From IMG/VR virus record IMGVR_UViG_2534682234_000019: DNA of 3,779 bases. The stretch is one strand, 5' to 3'. Of this stretch, positions 1 to 3,000 are shown one piece after another (position 1 is the first letter of the stretch; every line of letters starts with the position of its first letter). The DNA is from a virus (taxonomy: Duplodnaviria > Heunggongvirae > Uroviricota > Caudoviricetes). The position numbers are program-made.

Positions 1-3000
1 GATGGTTTATGCAGTGACGGCAACGGCCTTGAGCTGAAATGCCCGTTTACCTCCCGGGATTTCATGAAGTTCCGGCTCGGTGGTTTCGAGGCCATAAAAT
101 CGGCTTACATGGCCCAGGTGCAGTACAGCATGTGGGTGACACGAAAAGATGCCTGGTACTTTGCCAACTATGACCCGCGCATGAAGCGTGAAGGCCTGCA
201 TTATGTCGTGATTGAGCGGAATGAAAAGTACATGGCGAGTTTTGACGAGATGGTGCCGGAGTTCATCGAAAAAATGGACGAGGCACTGGCTGAAATTGGT
301 TTTGTATATGGGGAGCAATGGTAATGAAGCATCCTCACGATAATATCCGGGTAGGCACGATCACTTTCGTCTACTCCGTTACAAAGCGAGGCTGGGTATT
401 TCCCGGCCTTTCTGTTATCCGAAATCCACTGAAAGCACAGCGGCTGGCTGAAGAGATAAATAATAAACGAGGGGCTGTATGCACAAAGCATCTCCTGTTG
501 AATTAAGAACGAGTATCGGGATGGCACATAGCCTCGCTCAAATTGGAGTCAGGTTTGTGCCAATACCAGTAGAAACAGACGAAGAATTTCATACGTTAGC
601 CACATCCCTTTCACAAAAGCTGGAAATGATGGCGGCGAAAGCAGAAGCAAACGAGAGAGACCCGGCATGACAACAACAGAATGCATTTTTCTGGCAGCAG
701 GCTTCATATTCTGTGTGCTTATGCTTGCCGACATGGGACTTGTTCAATGACACCTCAGCAGGAAAACGCCCTTCGCAGCATTGCCCGTCAGGCTAATTCT
801 GAAATCAAAAAAGCCAGACAGCAGTTTCCGGATAAAAACGTCGATGACATTTGCCGTAGCGTACTGAAGAAGCACCGCGAAACGGTAACGCTAATGGGAT
901 TCACACCGACTCATTTAAGTCTGGCGATCGGCATGTTAAACGGCGTCTTTAAGGAGCGATGAACATGAAAAGCAAAATCATCAGGGAGCTACAGGCTCCT
1001 TTTTTATTGTTCGCATTCACCCTCAAGCGTATTAACCAACAATTCAGGGATTAATGGAAGATGGCAGACATCATTGATTCAGCATCAGAAATTGAAGAAT
1101 TACAGCGCAATACAGCAATAAAAATGCGTCGCCTGAACTACCAGACTGTATCCGCAACTCATTGTTGTGAGTGTGGCGATCCGATAGATGAACGAAGACG
1201 CCTGGCAGTTCAGGGTTGTCGGACTTGTGCAAGTTGCCAGGAGGATCTGGAGCTTATCAGTAAACAGAGAGGTTCGAAGTGAGCGAAATTAATTATCAGG
1301 CACTGCGTGAAAAGGCAGAGAAAGCAACTAAAGGAAGCTACATCGTAGGGCATACATCTGTTAACCAGCACGGCAATTTAACAGGAGTTTTTGTTTGCCA
1401 AAAATGGAAAGGAGAACCCGGTGGTGTGATTGCGGAATGTCATGTTAACTGCCTGGTTGAAACAGATGTTCAGGCTTATGCAAACGCTGAATTTATTGCT
1501 GCCTTTAATCCAAATGTTGCGCTGGCGCTTCTGGATGAACGGGAAAGAAACCAGCAATACATCAAACGCCGCGACCAGGAGAACGAGGAGATTGCGCTTA
1601 CGGTTGGGAAGCTGCGTGTTGAGCTTGAAGCAGCAAAATCAAAACTCAACGAGCAGCGTGAATATTACGAGGGAGTAATCGCGGATGGAAGTAAGCGCAT
1701 AGCAGAACTGGAAAAACAATGCGCCGAATGGGAGCGAAAAGCATTAAGCAACTTTGAAGAGTGTGCTGCGATGGCTGAACGTATCGAAGAGATGCAGACA
1801 AAATCTGCACCAGATTCGTTTGGCATCATCGGTGAAAATATTCGAACACAGGACAATCGAATAACGTCAGATCCCATGTTTTGTGTGTATCAAAAGCGCG
1901 AAATCGCTGTTGATGCTGATTATGACCATGACCGGATTGTCTGGGTTGACGAAGATGGCAATGAAGCCAATAAACGCCATAGTCGTCGTCTCGAGCTACT
2001 TCATGAAAACTTTCGAGAGCCACCAGAAAAATGGCGGCGCGTTGCTGTGAAAGATATTGATGAATTCGTTACCTGCTGTTTCACCGAACAGGGTTGTAAA
2101 GACTACCTGGCAGTCAATGGTCACAATCTTCGCTTGCCATTTATATATGTAAAAAGCGGTTTCAGGAACGCTGAATATATCGGCATAAGAAACTGGCTTG
2201 CTGGCATTCGCATCAAAGGAGAGTGAGATGAACGGACAAATATCAATTATTCGCCCTGGCGCTTGTGACGAAGACAATAAGGCTGATTATCCGCCTTGCG
2301 ATGGGTAGAACAATAACTGCTCTCATTACTCCAGAAAATCTCGCATTAGCATTAACCGGAAAGTCAGACCTGCCAGTAGAGCTAAAGCTGCGAAATGTTG
2401 AGATTAAGGTGAAATAGCTATGACCACTTTTACCAATAGCAAACTAACAGACGAATACGTTTCAAATGCAACGTTGATTCGGCTCATTCTGTGGGCTGAC
2501 CAGCACAATAGCCATTATGTTGTAGCGGCTCTGCGCGAGCTACAGGAGCGCCGCAAGGCTGATAGTGCAGAACCTGGAAGCCAAACTTACAAGTTGCCAG
2601 TTAATACACCTTGCCAAGATGCGCCAGCCCATATCTGGCTGCAAACGGCTGGAGTATGGCCAGAAGATGGCGAGTTAAGCGAATTAACGTGGTGCAGCCA
2701 CAATCAACACCATGATGACACGCTATATGTTCGAGCTGACCTTGTGAATGGCAACTATCCGGCAACTCCGGATGGTTGGATAAGCTGTAGTGAGCGAATG
2801 CCGGAGAAATACGATTTCGATATCTGGGTATTCTCTCCATCCAGAGGTGTTCTTGACGGGCTACAGTGGGATGGCTCGATGTTTACTGATGATGAATATC
2901 AGTTCGTTATTCATGACGCCACGCATTGGATGAGAAAAGTATATCCAGCAGCACCGCAGCAGGATGGTGAATGATGCCGCCAGTTAAAGTTGTGATTATC

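Follow-up and report, generated by a model that had tools for sequence, protein, structure and literature searches.

The closest described counterparts of the locus studied here are members of the protein family PHROG 1222, carried by lambdoid and P22-like phages. In phage BP-4795, the gene is annotated as ORF6 (YP_001449243.1; 192 nt, 63 aa) and is flanked by the ead/Ea22-like gene and a DUF551 gene; in phage HK620, it is hkaF, likewise intact with 192 nt and 63 aa. We have compared with these genes the interval 2228-2417 (plus strand) of a 3,779-nt stretch of the caudoviricete record IMGVR_UViG_2534682234_000019, which as a whole is called the window below. An earlier note, made by reading of the sequence, had described the interval as two coupled micro-ORFs, and had left it between real micro-proteins and the remnant of a gene disrupted by recombination at a mosaic joint. 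The interval is very probably a recently inactivated frameshift pseudogene of a small accessory gene of lambdoid/P22-like phages, whose place is in the early-left (pL-side) region, with the Ea22-like gene on one side and the DUF551 gene on the other. RefSeq already flags an identical copy as "frameshifted".

The intact gene and its protein family

The family of the intact 63-aa protein occurs widely among enterobacterial prophages. A protein search gave 72 clusters (90% identity; modal length, 63 aa), belonging to Escherichia, Salmonella, Enterobacter, Citrobacter, Cronobacter and Lelliottia, and tblastn detected the family in 181 phage records, including HK620 (hkaF, annotated as 'unknown'), Salmonella phage ST160 and many Stx1a/Stx2a phages. 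The tblastn search also matched some virulent Dhillonvirus-type siphoviruses; the homologues in these (phage records H178-H188) show 62-65% identity, so that the family extends beyond temperate lambdoid phages. In several of these records, VRR-NUC, Holliday-junction-resolvase or restriction-endonuclease genes are among the features named under the match.

The family alignment has 13 invariant columns and 21 more that are at least 90% conserved; column conservation continues across the position at which the window allele is broken, and is highest in the C-terminal 38 residues. In three comparisons involving the intact 189-nt gene of one IMG/VR locus (L010), synonymous codon differences exceeded non-synonymous ones (11:6, 14:6 and 11:4). 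On this evidence, the intact gene is a real gene. The predicted fold (pLDDT 80.5) consists of strands at residues 4-8, 18-23 and 29-34, a helix at 36-44 and a strand at 54-56. A Pfam/NCBIfam search of the intact protein gave no family match, its comparison with PDB folds gave no informative match, and the label of PHROG 1222 is 'unknown function'; the window adds nothing on the function of the family.

Two side observations were obtained for the family. Residues about 25-60 of the intact protein, corresponding to its C-terminal half, match the last 35 positions of PHROG 11564, 'DNA methyltransferase' (E 8e-6 to 7e-5), and this match may be due to mosaic fusion in some phage and not be a clue to function. 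Other members (P0071, P0084, P0041, P0047, P0059, P0069 and P0082) have apparently been disrupted or fused independently: the N-termini of P0071 and P0084 (RDT[N/H]DYSS..) represent the wrong frame of a BP-4795-type allele, and the C-termini of several of the others have been replaced. The small gene thus seems to decay repeatedly in prophages.

Organization of the interval in the window

The elements that surround and compose the interval are as follows, all on the plus strand.

1279-2226, plus strand: Ea22-like gene, with stop TGA at 2224-2226
2215-2223, plus strand: Shine-Dalgarno (SD) sequence AAAGGAGAG of the ancestral small gene; its GGAG ends at 2221, 6 nt 5' of ATG 2228
2228-2308, plus strand: ORF1 of 26 aa, MNGQISIIRPGACDEDNKADYPPCDG, from ATG 2228 to the stop TAG 2306-2308
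2301-2417, plus strand: ORF2 of 38 aa, from ATG 2301 to the stop TAG 2415-2417, in the +1 frame relative to ORF1
2301-2303, plus strand: ATG read as the ORF2 start, an internal Met codon of the ancestral protein (LAMGR), at a family alignment column occupied by M, R or I
2306-2308, plus strand: premature stop TAG, which would be reached by ribosomes initiating at ATG 2228
2406-2411, plus strand: AAGGTG, the likely SD of the DUF551 gene (ATG 2420), inside the 3' end of the small gene

The ORF coordinates, the near-perfect SD, the overlap of the two ORFs and the spacing of 2 nt between the ORF2 stop and ATG 2420 of the DUF551 gene had all been read correctly in the earlier note. The overlap of start 2301 with stop 2306-2308 is ATGGGTAG, at 2301-2308. 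In addition, the frame of ORF2 is already open from GTG 2265, giving 50 aa, and the two frames overlap across 2265-2308. No SD was found before ATG 2301, whose upstream context is ggctgattatccgccttgcg, and AAGGTG at 2406-2411 has been kept in all aligned relatives.

It had also been argued that every other junction of the operon is overlapping or shorter than 10 nt, and that a gap without genes would be an exception. This holds for three junctions in the window (-7, -28 and -4 nt) and fails for the other four (76, 98, 187 and 81 nt), and several of these four have terminator-like hairpins; long gaps are not exceptional in this window. The occurrence of ORFs of 26 and 38 aa within 190 nt is likewise not remarkable statistically in itself, and it is the homology to a conserved gene that makes the region 2228-2417 non-random. 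An Rfam search found no element within the window.

Intact orthologues at the same position

A megablast search with positions 2150-2480 matched 249 phage records and 1130 E. coli records, and in the best phage alignments the subject was 2 nt longer than the query. In the relatives, the interval is occupied by one gene. Besides BP-4795 and HK620, a single intact 192-nt gene was found in E. coli MBT-5, A35 and Res13-Lact-EA06-22, and an intact 189-nt gene encoding 62 aa (WP_024189306.1) in E. coli A3; four IMG/VR contigs, each with an intact 189-nt ORF, were retrieved with a degenerate pattern spanning the lesion. The search for a single longer ORF in relatives, an outcome that the earlier note had named beforehand as speaking against micro-ORFs, was therefore positive, and of its two proposals the remnant of a disrupted gene has stood, since relatives carry one intact gene of 62-63 aa across the interval.

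Synteny is also maintained: the small gene lies directly between an upstream Ea22-like gene and a downstream DUF551 gene, and the junctions TGAGATG and TAGCTATG are conserved. In BP-4795 ORF6, HK620 hkaF and PHROG 1222 members, the position, the SD, the start and the junctions of 1 nt and 2 nt are as in the window, and nucleotide identity to the window is approximately 90% (92.6% when flanks are included in the query), reaching 100% in the 3' 100 nt. AAAGGAGAG was present in every relative examined (BP-4795, RM12761, MBT-5 and the IMG/VR loci), with T in place of C just 5' of it at one IMG/VR locus. This strong SD is the ribosome-binding site of the ancestral intact gene. The difference from these relatives is in length, because the window allele has 190 nt against their 192 or 189 nt and is split into frames of 26 aa and 38 or 50 aa; in the intact 189-nt alleles (WP_024189306.1; L010 and L011), a single G stands for CA and one ORF of 62 aa results.

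The lesion within the gene

With reference to the intact alleles, the interval can be divided as follows.

2228-2417, plus strand: frameshifted 190-nt allele of a conserved prophage gene of 62-63 aa (PHROG 1222; BP-4795 ORF6; HK620 hkaF), with intact 192- and 189-nt orthologues at the same position
2228-2274, plus strand: N-terminal part in the original frame, MNGQISIIRPGACDE..., identical to the intact L010 and L011 alleles
2275-2276, plus strand: lesion, CA versus a single G in the closest intact alleles, as seen in alignments and in the comparison with L010 and L011
2277-2417, plus strand: C-terminal part, now in the +1 frame, IRLIIRLAMGRTITALITPENLALALTGKSDLPVELKLRNVEIKVK, as seen in the profile match and the translation

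Apart from G versus CA, the L010 and L011 alleles from IMG/VR show 0 mismatches to the window in 189 nt. The window allele accordingly has a net gain of 1 nt versus the nearest intact 189-nt alleles, and a net loss of 2 nt versus the 192-nt alleles. The native frame is that of ORF1 until about codon 15 and that of ORF2 from ATA 2277, and the profile search gave the same division: ORF1 residues 1-16 match positions 1-16 of PHROG 1222 (E 2.6e-4), and residues 4-50 of the 50-aa ORF2 from GTG 2265 match positions 17-63 (E 5e-28). The 63-position profile is covered end to end only when both frames are combined, and the single uninterrupted ORF of about 61-64 codons that characterizes PHROG 1222 is absent from the window allele. 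The last ten residues of ORF1, NKADYPPCDG (17-26), are out-of-frame sequence and have no counterpart in any relative. The interval thus combines what is looked for in a frameshift pseudogene, namely, intact orthologues, halves homologous in different frames, and an indel whose length is not divisible by 3. Neither an XXXYYYZ motif nor a homopolymer of at least 4 nt occurs in 2228-2310.

Identical broken copies and rarity of the allele

Over all 190 nt, the window allele is 100% identical to ECRM12761_RS32370, a RefSeq pseudogene of E. coli O145:H28 RM12761 with the PGAP label "hypothetical protein, frameshifted". RM13516, also O145:H28, carries the identical 190-nt allele, and PGAP has annotated this copy as frameshifted, too; RM12761 and RM13516 are near-identical genomes that differ by 5 bp in length.

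For a census, we used complete E. coli genomes (n=5426) and counted a homologue when at least 80% of the 190-nt query was covered. A homologue was present in 712 of the 5426 genomes, and among the matches listed for these 712 genomes, the 190-nt allele was found only in RM12761 and RM13516. The other 58 matches listed are 189-nt or 192-nt alleles, some of the former being aligned from query base 2 (188 nt recorded), and among the matches listed, the form of 192 nt and 63 aa is in the majority in E. coli. Outside the complete-genome set, E. coli PA48 (assembly GCA_000335095.2) provides the sole record of the 38-aa ORF (ECPA48_2451, contig AOEN01000086.1); this contig is identical to the window over 1500-3779, and its prophage adjoins an exonuclease I (sbcB-type) gene.

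Mosaic context

The small gene is part of a mosaic cassette of roughly 0.5 kb.

2231-2748, plus strand: mosaic cassette consisting of the frameshifted small gene and the 5' part of DUF551, common to the O145:H28 RM12761 prophage and missing from the O157:H7 sbcB prophage, which is 99% identical elsewhere

Positions 1-2230 and 2749-3779 of the window are 99.0% and 99.7% identical, respectively, to the prophage of O157:H7 strain 4276 (L007), and Stx2 phages 1717 and 2851 show the same two-piece match, covering 86% of the window. Positions 2205-2805, on the other hand, are 99.8% identical without gaps to the RM12761 prophage, whose surroundings are unlike those in the window with respect to the upstream gene, the DUF551 3' end and the xis/int module. 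As to the proposed break by recombination at the mosaic joint, the joint is real, being placed at the Ea22 stop/ATG (about 2227-2230) exactly where the similarity to the strain 4276 prophage ends, but the break is the G to CA change at 2275-2276. The lesion is about 45 nt inside the gene rather than at the joint, and the small gene arrived within a complete cassette, intact but for the point lesion. In the strain 4276 prophage, the same Ea22-like gene is followed by an unrelated small gene (L007:2528-2706), which PGAP flags as 'frameshifted' too.

The broken allele is therefore known in two prophage backgrounds, an O157:H7-type sbcB prophage in E. coli PA48 and the O145:H28 prophage, and must have either persisted long enough for exchange or been copied between co-resident prophages. 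For a dead gene, this is mildly unexpected and counts against that reading to this extent.

Weighing of other explanations

One other view is that the gene has been split and yet retains function, ribosomes re-initiating at ATG 2301 within ATGGGTAG to produce the C-terminal 38 residues, possibly in active form. If this were true, the locus would exemplify the natural splitting of a conserved small phage protein, and the spread of the cassette to two backgrounds would signify retained usefulness, not drift. The start/stop overlap is genuine, ORF2 is wholly undamaged and comprises the family's most conserved part, and the 38-aa ORF has been annotated as a protein (ECPA48_2451) in E. coli PA48. 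However, ATG 2301 is not preceded by an SD; the overlap at 2301-2308 is accidental because the family does not always have Met at this codon (M/R/I); and the fragment would miss strands 4-8 and 18-23 of the predicted fold. Moreover, an intact ORF2 is expected anyway after a very recent lesion, and the allele is rare, with two occurrences among the matches listed for the 712 genomes with a homologue. We therefore regard a functional split gene as improbable. To the two genuine, translationally coupled micro-protein genes that the earlier note had considered, we give practically no credence: the strong SD and ATG of ORF1, the stop/start overlap and the tight spacing to the next gene, which had suggested them, have all been inherited from a single ancestral gene. 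The overlap expected of a coupled pair is present, whereas its conservation as separate genes is not: neither ORF exists as such in the relatives, ORF1 residues 17-26 occur in none of them, the two-ORF layout recurs, among the relatives listed, only in the identical allele, and neither peptide as a unit matches a PHROG or Pfam family.

Two further explanations would leave a full-length protein. A programmed +1 (or -2) ribosomal frameshift could join the two halves, which are both intact and whose frames overlap over 2265-2308, with the rare AGG codon 2280-2282 in the incoming frame; a sequencing or assembly error could hide an intact 189-nt gene of the real phage, in accord with the presence of the allele in only three assemblies among the matches listed, two of which (RM12761 and RM13516) represent near-identical genomes. 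Both programmed frameshifting and a homopolymer-type read error are unlikely because there is no slippery site or homopolymer. Against the former, furthermore, the shift is seen in no diverged relative, those listed having a single ORF, and the shifted allele falls within a group of alleles that lack the shift and are otherwise identical, which is the signature of a new mutation and not of a conserved recoding signal; we consider programmed frameshifting to have a barely measurable chance of being correct. Against the latter, the same complex change from G to CA, outside a homopolymer, is found in the separate assembly of E. coli PA48, where the copy sits in a different prophage context, and an error thus appears highly unlikely.

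Consequences for expression and annotation

According to the preferred reading, a recent frameshift pseudogene, the allele differs from its intact form in having CA at 2275-2276 in place of a single G. Ribosomes would still load at the ancestral SD and ATG 2228, read 15-16 native codons and then continue in the wrong frame until TAG 2306-2308, and the product would be a 26-residue peptide with a nonsense tail; loss of the original function would be expected. The remaining 47 native codons would owe their survival as an open frame (ORF2) solely to the recency of the mutation. The DUF551 gene should still be translated, because its own putative SD, AAGGTG at 2406-2411, has been retained. Under N-antiterminated pL transcription, roughly 110 nt of untranslated RNA should cause little polarity. 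The 26-aa peptide may retain some role, as may a C-terminal fragment whose translation restarts at ATG 2301.

The case has little significance except for clean annotation. A single frameshifted pseudogene is the proper annotation of the interval, rather than two micro-protein genes or the lone 38-aa 'hypothetical protein' ECPA48_2451. The case also illustrates neatly how a new frameshift in a short gene can mimic a translationally coupled pair of micro-ORFs with a strong SD, and micro-protein screens should remove such cases by comparison with intact orthologues.

Other small ORFs and hairpins in the window

Two more small ORFs and several hairpins were observed in the window.

667-750, plus strand: hydrophobic ORF of 27 aa, MTTTECIFLAAGFIFCVLMLADMGLVQ, which exactly fills the 76-nt gap from the DUF1382 gene to the next gene
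983-1001, plus strand: hairpin resembling a terminator and carrying a T-run; the 98-nt gap that contains it separates the 71-aa gene (747-962) from the DksA/TraR-type zinc-finger gene (1061-1282)
2971-3060, plus strand: hydrophobic ORF of 29 aa, MMPPVKVVIITLVMIVIARIMSGEIVWIW, overlapping the DUF551 stop (ATGATG)

The ORF at 667-750 gave no PHROG match and is unannotated in the O157:H7 relative from strain 4276; it has ATGA-type start/stop overlaps at both ends, and is a better micro-protein candidate than the ORFs in 2228-2417. The ORF at 2971-3060, also with no PHROG match, is followed by two tandem terminator-like hairpins at 3091-3112 and 3123-3142.
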